34,489 nucleotides of DNA from a virus (Duplodnaviria > Heunggongvirae > Uroviricota > Caudoviricetes): positions 1 to 34,489 of the IMG/VR virus record IMGVR_UViG_2671180921_000023. One strand, given 5' to 3'. A program made the translations under genes and the position numbers. The first letter of the stretch is position 1, and the number at the start of each line of letters is the position of its first letter. Below, one piece after another: positions 2,561 through 28,600 of the stretch. The notes beneath the pieces were generated by a model that ran no database searches, was not told where the DNA came from, and saw only the letters and a list, made by a program, of their open reading frames with translations.

Positions 2561-3742
2561 ATGAGTGAAACACGCTTTCACGGTGCGCGCGTCAAAGAAA
2601 ACACCGACCTCGTGACCGCGATTAATGACATTGATTCCAGTGTCATCGGTATCGTGGCCACGGCGGACGATGCAGACAGCGACGCGTTCCCGTTAAACAG
2701 GCCCGTACTGATCACCCGCGTGGTGAATGTGCTGGGTAAGGCAGGCACAACAGGCACGCTGTACAAAACGCTCAAGGCGATTTCCGACCAGACCAGCCCG
2801 AAGGTTATTGTGGTGCGTGTGGCAGAAGCCGGAGAGGAAGGTGAGACACAGGACCAGCTTGTCATCGGTGGCTCGCAGGCTGACGGCAGCTACACGGGCA
2901 TGTATGCCCTGCTGGTTGCCGAACAGGATGAGAGCATTGGTTACCGCCCGCGCATTCTGGCCGCGCCCGGCCTTGATACCGAAGCCGTCACATCTGCCCT
3001 GTGCGTCATTGCGGACAAGCTCCGCGCCTTTGTGTACGCCGGATGTAACGGCTGTGACACGATGGCGGAGGCAATCACCTACCGCGCGAATTTCTCTGCG
3101 CGTGAGCTGATGCTGCTGTGGCCTGACTTCATTGCCTACAACCCGGTGAGCGGAAATAACGAAACGTTTCCGGCAGCGGCGTATGCGTGCGGGTTGCGTG
3201 CGCGGATTGACAGTGAACAGGGCTGGCACAAGTCTCTGTCCAACGTGGCGCTGAAAAATGTGCTCGGTATGTCGCAGCAGGTGTTCTGGTCGTTGCAGGC
3301 CGAAGACAGTGATGCGAACAGCCTGAACAACAAGGAAATCACCACGATTATTCGCCGTAACGGCTTCCGCTTCTGGGGGAACCGTACTGCCGAAACCAGC
3401 GACTACATCTTTGAGGTGTACACGCGCACAGCGCAGATTCTGGCAGATACCATCGCTGAGGCGCAGTTCGAAACCATTGACGAACCGCTGACCCCGGCGA
3501 ACGTGAAGGACGTGATTAGCGCCATCCGCGCAAAACTCAATGCCCTGGTCACCGCCGGAAAACTTATCGGTGCGGAGTGCTGGTATGACGTGCTGGACAA
3601 CGGCACGACGGATTTACGTCAGGGGCGCGTGCGTATCCGCTACAAGTACACACCAGTGCCGCCGATGGAAGACCTGACGCTGTACCAGACCTTCACGGAT
3701 GAGTATTTCGACTCCGCTTTTGCAACGCTGGGAGGTGCGTAA
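2561..3742 (+). CDS. FI: Contractile tail sheath protein gpFI
   Basis: 393 aa from ATG 2561 with AGGAGG RBS; resembles P2 FI (FPLNRPVLITRV, tail sheath family). Confidence 0.9.
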   Translation: MSETRFHGARVKENTDLVTAINDIDSSVIGIVATADDADSDAFPLNRPVLITRVVNVLGKAGTTGTLYKTLKAISDQTSPKVIVVRVAEAGEEGETQDQLVIGGSQADGSYTGMYALLVAEQDESIGYRPRILAAPGLDTEAVTSALCVIADKLRAFVYAGCNGCDTMAEAITYRANFSARELMLLWPDFIAYNPVSGNNETFPAAAYACGLRARIDSEQGWHKSLSNVALKNVLGMSQQVFWSLQAEDSDANSLNNKEITTIIRRNGFRFWGNRTAETSDYIFEVYTRTAQILADTIAEAQFETIDEPLTPANVKDVISAIRAKLNALVTAGKLIGAECWYDVLDNGTTDLRQGRVRIRYKYTPVPPMEDLTLYQTFTDEYFDSAFATLGGA

Positions 3743-22664: not shown

Positions 22665-23204
22665 CTAATAATCTTCTGTCTCCTGCCACGAGACTTTTCC
22701 GCCTGCCTTTATGATGGCTCGCTCAACATCCCGTTCGTATCGCAAAGGCTGGAATACGCCGTTAATGAAATACTCCTTTGGGTCCGGGATCGATACGGTA
22801 AATTTGTCATTCTCTGGTTTTGGTATTGGTGAGACTGGATGCTCGTTTTTGGCAAGTTTTTTTATGACTCCCTCGTATTTTTCTTTTGTACATTGCATCG
22901 CCTCTTCAAAAGAAAGCGCTTTGTTACGCATTAACACGGCGTACTTTAGTGCATCCTGTGCTTTCTGGAATTTAAGTGCATAGTCAGTGGCGATTTTTTC
23001 CAGTTCAGCAGCCCGCCTTCGAAGCCCTTCAATCTCACCATTGCGGGCGATGAGGTTGCAGCACATTCTTTCATTCTCATCCAGCAACGCCAGCACAACC
23101 GATGGTGTCACCTGTTCATGGAAAATATCCGCATCATATCCCCAGTCATCATGTATTGCCTGCTCTGCCGCTTCACGCAGTGCCTGATAGTCAATCTTGC
23201 TCAT
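22665..23204 (-). CDS. Hypothetical phage protein, possibly Ead/Ea22-like
   Basis: 179 aa; N-terminus MSKIDYQALREAAE and motif PSVVLALLDE. Last gene of the accessory operon; 4-nt overlap with the upstream gene. Confidence 0.45.
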   Translation of the reverse strand: MSKIDYQALREAAEQAIHDDWGYDADIFHEQVTPSVVLALLDENERMCCNLIARNGEIEGLRRRAAELEKIATDYALKFQKAQDALKYAVLMRNKALSFEEAMQCTKEKYEGVIKKLAKNEHPVSPIPKPENDKFTVSIPDPKEYFINGVFQPLRYERDVERAIIKAGGKVSWQETEDY

Positions 23205-23725
23205 TGGATGACTCCTTTGTGTTGCGTCAGCTCTTCCTGTGCCTGCATCATGCGATTGACCTGAACGCGTGTGCGTCGAACGGAAAAAACAAACAGATTC
23301 AAAAGGCGGCGCATCTCTTTGTCCTCATGTCGCGCATGACGGATAAAGGCAAGTCGGTAGAACTCGGATTCGGCAGCGCGTTGAATCAACGACAGAGCAA
23401 AGTGAAGTGCGGGTCTGGTGCATTTTGCACATCTGGCGGCAAGCTCTGGCATCAATCTCTTAACGAAGGTGTTTTGCACCGCTTTGTTGAGACGCACCTG
23501 CATCCGAAGCGCAAAGGCCAGCGAACGCATGAGCCGGATTGCGTCGGGCAACGGCAGATAGATCATGCTGGCGGTTTTGGGTAGCGGATGAATCATTTTT
23601 ACGGAGATGCGATTGCGCAGCGTTCGAAACATCGTGCTCCCGACAACAGACTCCACGGAGATGGGGCAGGGAGCCATACCAACCCGCAACGCGTTCGTCA
23701 TGAACAGATATTCATCTTTTTTCAT
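23201..23725 (-). CDS. Hypothetical protein (174 aa), accessory operon
   Basis: Start chosen at ATG 23725 (MKKDEYLF) with AAGGA RBS. A GTG start at 23788 would abut the upstream stop. No recognisable domain. Confidence 0.4.
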   Translation of the reverse strand: MKKDEYLFMTNALRVGMAPCPISVESVVGSTMFRTLRNRISVKMIHPLPKTASMIYLPLPDAIRLMRSLAFALRMQVRLNKAVQNTFVKRLMPELAARCAKCTRPALHFALSLIQRAAESEFYRLAFIRHARHEDKEMRRLLNLFVFSVRRTRVQVNRMMQAQEELTQHKGVIQ

Positions 23726-23788
23726 CGTGTTTTCCTTAGTGCGGGGCGACAGTGCCCCGATAAAATTAAAAGCCGTCAAACTCGTCAC

Positions 23789-24121
23789 TCATCTTCCTAC
23801 TCCCTGCGTTCCTTGTTTTTCGCGGATAACTTCGTTGCACAGTTCCACACACTCGTCGCAGATGAAAACGTCGTCCCCGGCAATTAACTGTTTGACGGCG
23901 TGCTGTGGTTTCTTGCAGAAGCTGCAATAAAGCGTTTGCCTGACAGATACGGATGATGTGTAGGATGTCAGCCTCGCGATGTCGTTCTTGCGGCGCAACA
24001 TCACACGGCAGCACTCAACCAGTTTCTCCGGGGCGATTTCTTCCTCTGTGGCGAGCGCCTCCAGTCGTTCGAGTATGTGGAAGGCTTTTTCCTCGGTAAT
24101 TGCAGAATGCGATGTGGTCAT
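23789..24121 (-). CDS. Small protein with a C-terminal ClpX-type C4 zinc-binding domain
   Basis: C-terminal [39 protein letters not shown] closely resembles the ClpX N-terminal zinc-binding domain. Start at ATG 24121 with AAGGAG RBS. Confidence 0.65.
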
Positions 24122-24132
24122 CTCTTTCTCCT

Positions 24133-24333
24133 TCAAAGTTCAGTGTGCTGACAGAGGTGTCCTTTGCGACAGACCAGGACGCTTCCCTTACTTGAGTCGG
24201 TGATTGTCACCGTGCCGTCATCGCACTGGACAACGATGACGGTGTTGCTCTTTTCCGTTGCGCAGTTCGGCGTGGTTGAATGCGCCAACGGAATGAAAAA
24301 CAGCGAAAAAAGTAATGTCAGTCTTTTCATCAT
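24133..24333 (-). CDS. Small secreted cysteine-containing protein (66 aa) with N-terminal signal peptide
   Basis: [19 protein letters not shown] signal-like N-terminus; short Cys-containing mature part; overlaps the start of the ClpX-ZBD gene. Confidence 0.4.
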
Positions 24334-24407
24334 GGATGCCTCATGCTTACTGTTCTGAAGGCATGACGCACTAAATAAAACAGTCCGCCATGCCTTATCA
24401 CGTCGCC

Positions 24408-24719
24408 TTATTCGGGGAATAAGGCCCTGATGTTTGCGGCCATCTGGCTGGGTGTCTGCACCTCTGGCGCAACCTGTACTTTGGGGCTTTCCGCCCTGAG
24501 CTGTGTCACGGGTAACGGCTCATCGTCAGCCCATGCAGCCAGCCGGTAAGCCTCTGCCGGATTCGTCTTCAGAAGTGCCAGCCCGGCCAGAAAAGCCACA
24601 CGTTGCCCGCTTTTGCGGGCTTCCGGTGTAAGGCTGTCCAGCCAGGCACATGCTTCGTTTTCGTTCTTGACTGCGGCTGGCTTCAGATAGAAACTTATCC
24701 GCCTGGTTGATGTTGTCAT
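24408..24719 (-). CDS. parR: ParR/StbB-like partition adaptor
   Basis: 103 aa, immediately downstream of parM; N-terminal RISFYLKPAAVKNE ... AFLAGLALL resembles plasmid R1 ParR. Confidence 0.65.
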   Translation of the reverse strand: MTTSTRRISFYLKPAAVKNENEACAWLDSLTPEARKSGQRVAFLAGLALLKTNPAEAYRLAAWADDEPLPVTQLRAESPKVQVAPEVQTPSQMAANIRALFPE

Positions 24720-24723
24720 TGGT

Positions 24724-25683
24724 TCACTCCCTGTTCATGTCATGGAGTCCATTAACCAGGGCAAACTGTGGCTCCGGTGTTGTGTGAATGTTTGCGTTGA
24801 GGCCGTAAGCGTCATGTACCGCCGGAGCCACAATCTCCGCCCCTCCACCGACAATCATCACCCGACCGTATCCCGAAAAGCCCGCCAGTGCGCGGATCAC
24901 GCGTTGTTTCAGTGTTTCTTCCTTTTCACGAATAACCGCCATCAGGCTGGCGTAATGCGCGTCATTGTGGATGTGCTGGCGCAGCCAGGCTTCATCGTGG
25001 CGATGTTCGATAATGGTATTGGCGATGTGGTGACTGGTACGCATACCGTTAGTGGCCATCACCGACAGTACGGCATCGGTCATCAGTGAAACGCCTACGT
25101 GTGGATCGCAAAATACCTGGCTGATGCCTGCCAGTTGCCCCTGAACCTTTGCCACATCCAGCGTGGTTCCGCCTAAATCCACAATCAGCAGGGATTCAAA
25201 CGGACTCATGTCAGCCAGTGCTTTAAAACCAGCCGGAATGGATTCAGGCATAACCCGTACGTTACGGATAGTGAATGCTTTTCCGTTCTGGTACGCCACC
25301 GGGCGCATGACGTTTGCTTTTTTGCGGTTGATGTTGGCCATGTCCGGCTGTGCGTTTGTGTCGAAATACTCGCTCAGTGGCAGGGTGACAACCACATCCA
25401 CTTCCTGTGGTGTGATGCCTGATTTGACCAGCGCGTGATGAATGGCAATGACATTCACATCGCTGTACTGGTATTGCGTGTCGGTCGTCTGGACAAAGCG
25501 ATCGCTGACCGGATCAAAACCATAGCGCACGCCATCAAGCATGTAGTTCGCGGGCTGCGTGCCACCGAACGGCGCAGACCATTCCGACTTGAAGCTGTTC
25601 GGGCTGATGGCGTTGCGGCGTTCGCCGTTCTCAGTCCATGCCAGCTTGATGTTGGTGGAGCCGTCATCGATACAAATTTTCAT
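24724..25683 (-). CDS. parM: ParM/StbA actin-like segregation ATPase
   Basis: 319 aa with ParM phosphate-binding motifs: IDDGSTNIKL, FTIRNVRVMPESIPAG, LLIVDLGGTTLDV, VMIVGGGAE. Co-linear with R1 ParM. Confidence 0.85.
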   Translation of the reverse strand: MKICIDDGSTNIKLAWTENGERRNAISPNSFKSEWSAPFGGTQPANYMLDGVRYGFDPVSDRFVQTTDTQYQYSDVNVIAIHHALVKSGITPQEVDVVVTLPLSEYFDTNAQPDMANINRKKANVMRPVAYQNGKAFTIRNVRVMPESIPAGFKALADMSPFESLLIVDLGGTTLDVAKVQGQLAGISQVFCDPHVGVSLMTDAVLSVMATNGMRTSHHIANTIIEHRHDEAWLRQHIHNDAHYASLMAVIREKEETLKQRVIRALAGFSGYGRVMIVGGGAEIVAPAVHDAYGLNANIHTTPEPQFALVNGLHDMNRE

Positions 25684-25714
25684 GTCGCTTTTCCTTATGT
25701 TGATTAATTAATCG

Positions 25715-25827
25715 TTTACGGGATTCTGAAATCCCGTTTTTGCCTGTTTTGTGCGCGCTTCATATATCGCTGCGCGTTTTTTGCTCATTTACGGGATTCG
25801 TGAGTCCCGTTTCTGTCTGTTTTTTGT
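25715..25827. repeat. Two 40-bp direct repeats, each a hairpin plus T-run; candidate parC centromere/promoter or origin-associated element
   Basis: Copy 1 at 25715-25753 (intergenic, upstream of parM); copy 2 at 25788-25827 (inside the last codons of gene A). Each has an ACGGGATT-type 8-bp stem. Confidence 0.5.
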
Positions 25828-28600
25828 TTCCGCTGGTCAGGCCACCCCGCAGCAGGTCTGCTTTGCGGCTGGCGCGTTCAGTGGTTTCACTGATTCTCTG
25901 TGCGTGCTCTGCGTCGCGGATGGCGCGCAGCATGTCAGAAAGCACGGTAACGGGTGTTTTCATGGTGTTCTGGTCCTGCTGAAGTGTGGATGCCAGGCGT
26001 GCGGCGGCTTCAGGGTCTGATGCCCCCAGCTGTGCCAGATAGCTGGCGACCGGGTTATGGCGGATCTCCGTGCTGCTTACGCCATGATTACGGCTCAGGC
26101 GCTGCCAGAGCTGCGTGATTCGGCTGTCCGGGCGGGTATCCGGTTTGCGTACAATTTCAAATCCCTGCGGTGCAATGATGCTGCCGTCAACGTACAGACT
26201 GCCGCCCCGTAACAGGTGCTGCATCTGTTGTTCACCGATATGCAGGCCGAGAGATTCAGCAGACTCCCGCCATTCTTTAGCGAGTAATTCGTGGTTATCA
26301 GGCAAAGGCCGCTGCTGTTTGCGGCTCTGTGTCCAGCTCTGCATTTCATCACTGCTGTTTTTTGCCTGTTTGTCACGAAGCGAACGCATCAGCGCCCGGC
26401 GTTCGTGCCGTTTCAGTGAGCGCATCCATTCGTTCACTTCAACGCCGTCAGGGAGCTGCGGCCACGGTGCTGGCCGTTCTTCCGGCTGTTCTGTCCCGTT
26501 GTTGTCCGTTTCCTGTACACGGGGACAGTTATTGCCACGAGTCCAAGGGGCGGCAGGGCCGCCCTGAAGGTCAAAACCATTTTCGCGGGAGCTGTCTTCC
26601 GCTTCCGGTTTACGTCTTACCAGCTTCCAGTTATCCGGGTGCGTGCACACACGGGAGGATTCCCCGATGAGTGGTGACCAGATCCCGTAAATCTGTACAC
26701 TCTGTTCGCCGTAATCGTTCAGCTCATCTGCGAGGTCGTAGGCGGTGCGAATCAGGTAGTCTTTACGTGGAACAAGTACTCCGCCCTGTTTCTCAATGTA
26801 GGTGGCAAAACATCCGGCATCAGCGGCAGCAAGAACCGCATCCATTGCGTCATCCTTCAGCCGTTGTGGGCCTTCCGGGTTGCGTGCCATCTGGCTGGCA
26901 AGGCGGCGCAGTTCACGCCATACCTGACGGGAGGGGATACCAAAGAACTGGAACTGGCGGACCCGGTGAAGGCGCGCCCAGCCGATGGCGCGCTCCACGC
27001 TCTCGGCCATTGATTTTCCGGTTTCGTGGTCAACGCGTGGCTTGCCCGTTTTCGGGTCGATGCCATCCACGGCGCGGCTATCCAGGTTCTTTCCGATGTA
27101 GGTGGCGATGTAGCTGGTTGGCGTGCCTTTCGAACCGTCGACGTACTCTGCCTTAAAGCGCGGAGTAATATCATTGCCCAGCTCGTGGCGGTCTTCCTGA
27201 ATGGCAATATCGCAGACGTGGGACACGATGGTTTCAATCTCGTCCGGATGTGCAAAGACCATCATATGCCAGTGCACCGTGCCGTCATGGTGAGGCTCCA
27301 CCGTGCGGATGCCATACCAGCGCAGACCGTCGCGGTTCAGTTTTTTGCGGACCGCCGCAAAAAACGTGTTAACCAGGTAATCGCTGGAGTCGCGCATGGT
27401 GGCTCCGTTCCATTTGGGGTTCGGATGACCGTTCTCCGTTGTTGCGTGGTATTTTGACGGGCAGGTGACAGTCAGAAACACCGCTCTGTCGCCACGGGCT
27501 TCGGCCAGAAGTTCCAGCCCCTTCATGGTGGCCATCATTTCTGCCTTACGGTGAACCGGGTTACTTACTCCCGCGTAATACACTGTCTCGAGATCAATCG
27601 TGAACCCGTCTTCATTTTCCAGCATGAAACTTTTCAGGAAATCGCGTGTTTTCTCGCGCTGTGCGCGAAACTCGCTTAACGCGTCCTGGCTCAGATAGGG
27701 TGATGTTTTTCTGGAAACCAGACAGGCGGCGCGGAGTTGTTCTTCTCTCCACTCGCAACGTAACAGCCACAGTTTGCGTTTCCACCATTCCGCACAGGTC
27801 AGGCGAAGGATTGCGCCCGGCAGCAGCTCCGTGTCCGGTTCGTTCCTCCGGTCTTTGTCTGTTGTCAGTGCGTCATAATGTGGAGGCATGGCGTGCAGGT
27901 GTAACGCCATGCGGGCCAGCATCTGATACGCCTTCAGCGTTACATCCATGGTCAGTTCGCCATCAGTAGCGCCAAAGCCATCGCAGAGTTTTTCGAAGGT
28001 GCTGCTGAACATCGCCGCCGTCATGGTGGCCAGCGTCTGTATCTGGTGTTTGTTGAGCTGCGGCAGGTAAAGCAAATCGTCCAGGCGTTCGCGTCCGGCA
28101 AGGGAGCGATAACCCGGTGTCAGCCAGCGGTGATCGGTGCGGTCCAGACGTTCGAATATTTTGCGCAGGGTTCCGCGCGCGTAGCGTTCAGCCTGCCAGC
28201 TCTTTTTGCCTTTCTGGCGATCGGCTTCCTGTTTTTTGCGCAGGAAAGAGAGGTGGCGGCTCAGAGGTTCACGCAGATAAACGGGAAGCACCTTCAGTGT
28301 GGCAAAAGCACGGGCCACCGGGTCTTGTTCTGTTGCCTGACGCTTGCTGATGATGCTTTGTGCCAGCTTTTCACGCTGTCCGGCTTCCTCAAGGGATGCC
28401 ATGAGTTTTTTACCCATGGCGGATTGTGCGAAAAAGGCTTCCTCCTTCGCTTCCTGTTCTTCCTGGGCCTTTTTGTCTGCCTCAAGGTAGTAACGGATGG
28501 CGCGTTGCAGGTCGGTTTCAGTTTCCTGCCTGCACTCCGTAAATCTGGCCGGATCAATGGCTGGCCGCGGTTCATTCCAGCTCCATGCAAACTCACTCAT
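25760..28600 (-). CDS. A: Replication initiation protein gpA (rolling-circle HUH endonuclease)
   Basis: About 946 aa, P2 gpA-like with HUH motif (VHWHMMVF). Start at ATG 28600 overlaps the upstream stop (ATGA coupling). Confidence 0.85.
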   Translation of the reverse strand: MSEFAWSWNEPRPAIDPARFTECRQETETDLQRAIRYYLEADKKAQEEQEAKEEAFFAQSAMGKKLMASLEEAGQREKLAQSIISKRQATEQDPVARAFATLKVLPVYLREPLSRHLSFLRKKQEADRQKGKKSWQAERYARGTLRKIFERLDRTDHRWLTPGYRSLAGRERLDDLLYLPQLNKHQIQTLATMTAAMFSSTFEKLCDGFGATDGELTMDVTLKAYQMLARMALHLHAMPPHYDALTTDKDRRNEPDTELLPGAILRLTCAEWWKRKLWLLRCEWREEQLRAACLVSRKTSPYLSQDALSEFRAQREKTRDFLKSFMLENEDGFTIDLETVYYAGVSNPVHRKAEMMATMKGLELLAEARGDRAVFLTVTCPSKYHATTENGHPNPKWNGATMRDSSDYLVNTFFAAVRKKLNRDGLRWYGIRTVEPHHDGTVHWHMMVFAHPDEIETIVSHVCDIAIQEDRHELGNDITPRFKAEYVDGSKGTPTSYIATYIGKNLDSRAVDGIDPKTGKPRVDHETGKSMAESVERAIGWARLHRVRQFQFFGIPSRQVWRELRRLASQMARNPEGPQRLKDDAMDAVLAAADAGCFATYIEKQGGVLVPRKDYLIRTAYDLADELNDYGEQSVQIYGIWSPLIGESSRVCTHPDNWKLVRRKPEAEDSSRENGFDLQGGPAAPWTRGNNCPRVQETDNNGTEQPEERPAPWPQLPDGVEVNEWMRSLKRHERRALMRSLRDKQAKNSSDEMQSWTQSRKQQRPLPDNHELLAKEWRESAESLGLHIGEQQMQHLLRGGSLYVDGSIIAPQGFEIVRKPDTRPDSRITQLWQRLSRNHGVSSTEIRHNPVASYLAQLGASDPEAAARLASTLQQDQNTMKTPVTVLSDMLRAIRDAEHAQRISETTERASRKADLLRGGLTSGNKKQTETGLTNPVNEQKTRSDI

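Follow-up and report, generated by a model that had tools for sequence, protein, structure and literature searches.

A parC-like candidate site made of two palindromic boxes upstream of parM and parR in P88-like prophages

Between its replication gene A and parM, a P88-like (Xuanwuvirus, P2-family) prophage carries two direct repeats, one of which runs into the end of gene A. What are these repeats for? The prophage is the 34,489-nt stretch of DNA that we analysed, referred to below as the window. An original prediction, made from the letters of the window, had proposed as candidate roles a parC centromere or ParR operator, plus-strand terminators insulating the junction of gene A and parM from antisense transcription, or an origin-associated element. 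Our analysis supports the first of these. We estimate a probability of about 75% that a type II ParM/ParR cassette, carried in the accessory region of the prophage, has in these repeats its parC-like centromere and probably its operator as well, and we predict that they are bound by ParR. We favour this reading because of the position of the repeats, their inheritance together with the parMR module, and the two-box architecture that diverged parMR cassettes have kept, all of which come from comparison of sequences.

Over the 601 bp around the repeats, P88 and 13 further phage records have 96.5–99.3% identity to the window. Of 5426 complete E. coli genomes, 1370 contain the 401 bp around the repeats, which span the junction of gene A and parM, and the junction was chromosomal in 1530 of the 1532 places where it occurred. 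Genomes with the junction include ST131 (EC958) and O157:H7 strains. One plasmid match (H15) was rejected as a plasmid using the cassette, as it proved to be a P88-like prophage inserted in an IncHI2 plasmid; the record L134 is a prophage copy inserted in an IncHI2 Salmonella plasmid. Our search of the literature returned no description of parMRC or parC for P88-like or Xuanwuvirus phages. The features of the locus, in window coordinates, are the following.

25760–28600, minus strand: gene A, replication endonuclease (Phage_GPA in Pfam, E = 2e-129); its start is set at the first in-frame ATG, where it overlaps the stop codon of the frame upstream (ATGA)
25785–25826, no strand assigned: distal 42-nt repeat (copy 2), overlapping the last codons of gene A
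25763–25819, minus strand: 19-codon C-terminal extension of gene A, QTETGLTNPVNEQKTRSDI, from an alignment of gene A C-termini (A4)
25791–25810, no strand assigned: distal palindromic box, with its GGG-N10-CCC core at 25793–25808
25754–25784, no strand assigned: 31-bp spacer between the repeats, with the gene A stop codon and an extra iteron-like AAAAACGCGCA
25712–25753, no strand assigned: proximal 42-nt repeat (copy 1), intergenic, ending 29 nt upstream of the parM ATG
25718–25737, no strand assigned: proximal palindromic box, with the sole -10-like hexamer (CAGAAT) at its centre
25691–25696, minus strand: Shine-Dalgarno sequence of parM, AAGGAA, kept in the alignment of upstream regions (A3)
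24724–25683, minus strand: parM, actin-like partition ATPase, 319 aa (StbA_N/ParM in Pfam, E = 7e-82 and 3e-65)
24408–24719, minus strand: parR, centromere-binding adaptor, 103 aa, the presumed binder of the boxes (Plasmid_stab_B in Pfam, E = 1e-23)

A search of the window for direct repeats returned the two 42-nt copies, which start 73 bp apart and match at 34 of 42 positions (81% identity). The spacing is thus the one originally given, but the copies, there described as near-identical elements of about 40 bp, are less alike than that. Their placement was given correctly: copy 1 is intergenic, upstream of parM, and copy 2 lies within the end of gene A, of which it occupies the last 22 codons, the stop codon itself (25760–25762, minus strand) falling within the spacer. 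When we shuffled the surrounding 1.6 kb 300 times and allowed spacings of 42–149 nt, the best 42-nt match reached 27 of 42 positions (mean 23.4), and the repeat pair is therefore not due to chance.

In each copy, a 4-nt centre is flanked by inverted arms of 8 nt (25718–25725/25730–25737 in the proximal copy and 25791–25798/25803–25810 in the distal one), and the general form of both palindromes is ACGGGATT-N4-AATCCCGT. On the coding (minus) strand the proximal palindrome reads ACGGGATT-TCAG-AATCCCGT and the distal one ACGGGACT-CACG-AATCCCGT, the distal stem having one non-Watson-Crick position, which is G-U in plus-strand RNA and C-A on the minus strand. Folding of both strands gave hairpin energies of -9 to -12.7 kcal/mol (-10 to -12.7 kcal/mol on the plus strand) with modest z-scores of -1.7 to -2.6.

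The repeated units are arranged in blocks, as in a parC, at two levels: the 42-nt repeats and, within and between them, phased AAAYR sub-motifs. The latter lie on the coding strand at 25826, 25819, 25809, 25787, 25776, 25746, 25736 and 25714, with a phasing of 10.4–10.5 bp and a resultant R of 0.76–0.79 that was reached by 5 of 491 shuffles. Direct AAAC(A/G)G motifs stand 10 bp apart in the window and are conserved in the proximal block only (alignment A3). In the spacer (25754–25784), a CGCGCA...CGCGCA direct repeat, 19 bp apart, surrounds ATATAT; in lineage L129, by eye, both copies have become CGTGCA, that is, they have changed jointly. The CGYGCA pair suggests a further constrained element, possibly a protein site or part of a promoter.

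The gene order on the minus strand is gene A, repeats, parM, parR, and the repeats (25712–25826) thus lie directly upstream of parM-parR on the same strand, with ATTAATCAA conserved directly upstream of the parM Shine-Dalgarno sequence. Both proteins are recognizable members of the partition families. ParM matches R1 ParM structures at E = 1e-91, and plasmid ParM proteins are at most ~51% identical to it. Among 64 relatives, parM varies at 25 of 66 third codon positions and at 5 of 67 and 5 of 67 of the other two, a third-position bias indicating that the gene is maintained by purifying selection. A single ParR sequence gave no match among solved structures; the family profile alone reached pB171 ParR/StbB (PDB 2JD3, E = 8.5e-15). 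ParR keeps an N-terminal RRISFYLKP strand and a C-terminal N-x3-LFP motif, the latter aligning with the ParM-contacting region in R1. At 103 aa it is short compared with the 116–147 aa of ParRs from plasmids and other prophages; relative to these, P88-like ParR is without ~12–25 residues in the middle of the protein.

Downstream, the parR stop codon is overlapped by a hairpin with a 9-bp stem (24405–24425, GCCTTATTC-CCC-GAATAAGGC), which is terminator-like on the plus strand in the scan and is followed by no T-run on the parR strand. Beyond parR, positions 22665–24136 hold accessory ORFs with Ead/Ea22-like and ClpX-type C4 zinc-finger domains; the window and P88 are not alike in this segment, which is suggestive of variable cargo beside cos.

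A consensus scan of the repeat region found no sigma-70 promoter. A relaxed scan returned candidates matching at only 7–8 of 12 positions, which were not common to all lineages; the best of these weak candidates, AAAACA-16-CAGAAT, overlaps the proximal box. Since there is no convincing sigma-70 promoter and the candidate is not found in all lineages, both an operator role and independent expression of the cassette are uncertain, and parMR may owe its expression to early-operon transcripts that read through gene A.

Cassettes with parMR between gene A and the portal gene occur in P2-like prophages of Hafnia, Plesiomonas, Serratia, Enterobacter, Salmonella and E. marmotae. We compared the upstream regions of seven lineages: the window, L133, L132, L131, L129, L005 (Hafnia) and L007 (Plesiomonas). 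A contig with a partial ParM (L128) begins inside parM and is without an upstream region for comparison. Two GGG-N10-CCC boxes, 72–73 bp apart, are present in 7 of 7 lineages, and the proximal box lies 51–59 nt before the parM ATG in all of them. This layout persists while ParR diverges: overall, ParR identity to the window protein is 38–98%, with 71% in L129, 56–59% in L131–L133, 41% in L005 and 38% in L007. In the most diverged of these, from Plesiomonas, the direct-repeat search returned a 26-nt repeat, again at 72-bp spacing. Of 200,000 shuffles per upstream region, a fraction of no more than 1.5e-5 produced two boxes 70–76 bp apart. The original prediction had named conservation in related prophages as a check on the repeats, and the two boxes are kept in seven parMR lineages.

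What is kept within the boxes is informative as to their role. The GGG and CCC show no variation, and the box centres are unconstrained, both in the seven lineages (alignment A3) and among 64 P88-like variants. The closer lineages, L129–L133, retain the hairpin and its T-rich tail. In L005 and L007, stems are only 3–4 bp with loops of 10 nt, and the tails have 2–5 T in 12 nt; despite this loss of hairpin and T tail, the position and spacing of the boxes are retained, which argues for selection on the half-sites and their spacing and not on a hairpin or terminator. The spacing of 72–73 bp corresponds to about seven helical turns, placing the pair on the same face of the helix. Arm substitutions are one-sided, and the resulting G-U wobble falls on opposite strands in different copies and lineages; the two-sided changes, few in number, are to be expected equally for a palindromic protein site and for a hairpin. 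All seven two-box lineages have in common the ParR N-terminal strand TRR(I/V)SFYL. In the Serratia/Enterobacter group, the ParR strand is NRKISFYL and the upstream architecture is different, a combination that fits co-variation of the site with its protein.

We found that the repeats travel with parMR and not with gene A. L093 and L072 become homologous to the window at ~25824–25826, where the distal repeat has its outer edge; upstream of the repeats they have an unrelated ORF, and the end of gene A is ~400 bp further off. Another ORF sits between gene A and the repeats in L132 and L133, and in L131 (E. marmotae) the end of gene A falls 9 nt short of the distal box, leaving both boxes intergenic. 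Conversely, no GGG-N10-CCC box is found downstream of gene A in P2 or in L094 and L095, which have a gene A closely related to that of the window and are without parMR. Judged from these junctions, the repeats belong to the parMR module and are inherited with it as one unit: the edge of the module is at the distal repeat, and the architecture tracks the strand of the cognate ParR.

How did the distal repeat come to overlap gene A? The A proteins of L094, L095 and L131 end in ...NKK, ...KKK or ...NKE (alignment A4), and those of the window and P88 run 19 residues past this usual end (QTETGLTNPVNEQKTRSDI). In the DNA, the TAA of L131 corresponds to CAG in the window, and the overlap is thus explained by loss of the ancestral stop codon (TAA to CAG) and read-through. 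The 19-codon extension is without third-position bias (positions 1, 2 and 3: 5/22, 8/23 and 9/23), although these numbers are small. The overlap with gene A is a by-product of stop loss. This would also account for an annotation oddity in P88-type phages, the 19 extra codons of A being read-through into a centromere-like site.

Could the hairpins instead be plus-strand Rho-independent terminators that block antisense transcription into gene A? The consensus scan does call both of them terminator-like on that strand, with 8-bp stems, four G-C pairs and T-rich tails, and L129–L133 retain this arrangement. The 8-bp stems of the original prediction are indeed present, but the T-run that it placed after each stem is interrupted in both cases (TTTTTGCCTG and TTCTGTCTGT, the second beginning TTCTG). 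Moreover, the P88 genes annotated from the portal gene to gene A are all on the other strand, and the hairpins, antisense between gene A and parM, mark no end of a plus-strand transcription unit, there being no plus-strand gene upstream. The boxes outlast both stem and tail in Hafnia and Plesiomonas, the arm substitutions show no strand-consistent compensation, and a search of Rfam gave no family match at E ≤ 1 in 25500–26000. On the basis of folding of both strands, the seven-lineage comparison of hairpins and T tails, and the pair changes, we rejected termination as the conserved function and consider it very unlikely. The repeats would be a replication element, either an accessory P2-type origin site or a rolling-circle single-strand initiation hairpin, if the location of the P2 origin inside gene A and the fact that hairpins are typical of single-strand origins were decisive. 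However, the nick site of P2, which precedes the stop codon of its gene A by 427 nt, has its homolog at 26525–26562 of the window, ~700 bp away from the repeats; these are lacking in the gene-A-only relatives (L094, L095) and P2, and they move with parMR when a different gene is upstream. The origin association originally suggested was thus rejected, since the nick site maps elsewhere, and its probability is slight. The nick-site homolog in the window is itself adjoined by a 12-nt inverted repeat that P2 is without (CTGTCCCCGTGT...ACAACGGGACAG, 26491–26502/26517–26528), and the sequence of this inverted repeat, GAAACGGACAACAACGGGAC, loosely resembles the parC repeat as the third member of direct-repeat family D1 (79%).

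That the two copies are a functionless recent local duplication or a chance similarity might be argued from the modest z-scores of the hairpins; the match of 34 of 42 positions against at most 27 in shuffles and the persistence of the two-box layout in seven lineages, down to 38% ParR identity, make it negligible in our estimate. A reading that shares more ground with ours is that the boxes are a transcriptional operator only, for ParR or another phage regulator, acting on parMR or on read-through from the early operon and having no centromere role, as in a cassette repurposed in an integrated prophage. Several features would suit such an operator, and some of them also count against a parC: the proximal box covers the only -10-like hexamer, just upstream of the parM ribosome-binding site; the prophage sits in the chromosome (almost universally, in 1530 of 1532 places); there are just two boxes, compared with ten iterons in R1; and ParR is shortened (103 aa against 116–147 aa in its homologs). 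It also counts against a parC that the best-conserved units are inverted half-sites, whereas characterized systems have direct repeats. Against an operator alone, ParM is intact and under purifying selection, and the C-terminal motif of ParR is conserved. Furthermore, operator and centromere of R1 are one element (PMC2241845), so that an operator role overlaps the parC-like reading rather than excluding it. We regard an operator without a centromere role as unlikely.

How closely does the proposed site resemble known partition sites? In R1, parC lies upstream of parM, the same DNA serves as operator and centromere, and this DNA is intrinsically curved (PMC2241845). The window site is like it in lying directly upstream of parM-parR, in having two repeat blocks that flank a centre and in being rich in A-tracts, and the phasing of AAAYR motifs recalls the curvature of R1 parC (PMC2241845), by analogy. 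It is unlike it in other respects: R1 parC, 159 bp long, has ten 11-bp direct iterons (2 × 5) and, in its 39-bp core, a clear promoter, whereas the window has two ~20-bp palindromic boxes of inverted half-sites, 73 bp apart, within ~115 bp and with no clear promoter. The proteins have diverged as well, with ParM ~47% and ParR ~27% identical between the window and R1, ParR remaining in the same Pfam family. L001, whose ParM is identical to R1 ParM at 319 of 320 positions, has an R1-type parC upstream, with A/C-rich 11-bp iterons such as AAACCCAAAAAC in two blocks round a promoter core. When the right half-site of the window with its flank, AATCCCGTAAAC, is set against the R1-type iteron AAACCCAAAAAC, the likeness is visible at the level of single units: the box half-site with flank, AATCCCGTAAA(C/T), matches the iteron at 9 of 12 positions, and the distal box of Hafnia contains the exact 12-mer AAACCCAAAAAC. 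Direct-iteron arrays have been described for R1, pB171, pSK41 and C. perfringens plasmids, the iterons of the first three being about 10–20 bp, and according to a review-type statement direct repeats are what every characterized ParR binds (PMC9426499). To find a parC upstream of parM is in itself expected; the two-palindrome layout is unusual.

Other systems gave partial likenesses. The parC1 of pB171 par1 is a small centromere, and the window has AAAACAGGC and AAAAACGGGA 10 bp apart; the upstream regions of the pB171-like L002 and L004 are, however, T-rich, with GTATTTTTCT-type iterons unrelated to the window repeats and no palindromic boxes evident. The Serratia/Enterobacter P2-like cassettes L008, L009 and L099 occupy the same slot as in the window, from gene A to the portal gene, and have in common with the window proximal block the motif AACGGGCAAAAACGGGA. 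Unlike the window, they have no GGG-N10-CCC pair and instead a long inverted repeat, GGGAAC...GAAATAGAAAAAT / ATTTTTCTATTTC...GTTCCC, round a core of 20–28 bp. In these three cassettes (L008 3870–3945, L009 3870–3955, L099 3370–3445) the inverted repeat is GAAATAGAAAAATG / CATTTTTCTATTTC, 14–20 nt, extended to GGGAAC/GTTCCC, and is preceded by two ACGGG motifs 10 bp apart. The StbA-type locus of the phage-plasmid D6 has a phage-borne ParM homolog that is 46% identical to the window ParM. D6 is a plasmid prophage; P88-like prophages, unlike D6, are integrated. In L123, an Apirhabdus apintestini plasmid, parM is 62% identical to that of the window and apparently split into two ORFs, and at positions 3340–3470 a promoter-like TTGTATAAT has classical direct iterons, GTTCTCAAATA, to either side of it. 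We rejected L123 as a comparable site, its parC being unrelated and of the iteron type.

If the repeats are a parC-like site, it would work along the lines described for ParMRC (PMC2241845, PMC9426499). Dimers of ParR, a ribbon-helix-helix protein, would bind the inverted half-sites (AATCCCGT) of each box, and the two ParR clusters, on one face of bent DNA, would form a compact nucleoprotein complex, the assembly of which may be helped by the degenerate AAAC(G/A)G motifs between the boxes and by intrinsic bending. The C-terminal N-x3-LFP tail of ParR would then capture the ends of ParM filaments, and filament growth would move parC-carrying DNA molecules apart. When bound at the proximal box, 27 nt ahead of the parM ribosome-binding site and over the only -10-like hexamer, ParR probably represses parMR too; such an operator role is plausible but weakly supported.

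On which DNA might such a system act in a prophage of the chromosome? We raise tentatively, as an idea with the odds against it, that integrated P2-like prophages run a working actin-type segregation system with a new two-palindrome centromere, its boxes seven turns apart. It could act on the free phage circle, after infection and before integration or else after induction, when it would space or segregate replicating genomes; alternatively, the target of the cassette may be the host chromosome or competing parMRC plasmids. As the cis-acting half of ParMRC, parC sets partition specificity and incompatibility. Should the predicted binding of ParR to the boxes be true, a palindromic two-box architecture would join a class that has been described as built of direct repeats, and the segment 25712–25826 would provide a handle on why so common an integrated prophage keeps an intact segregation machine of the plasmid type.
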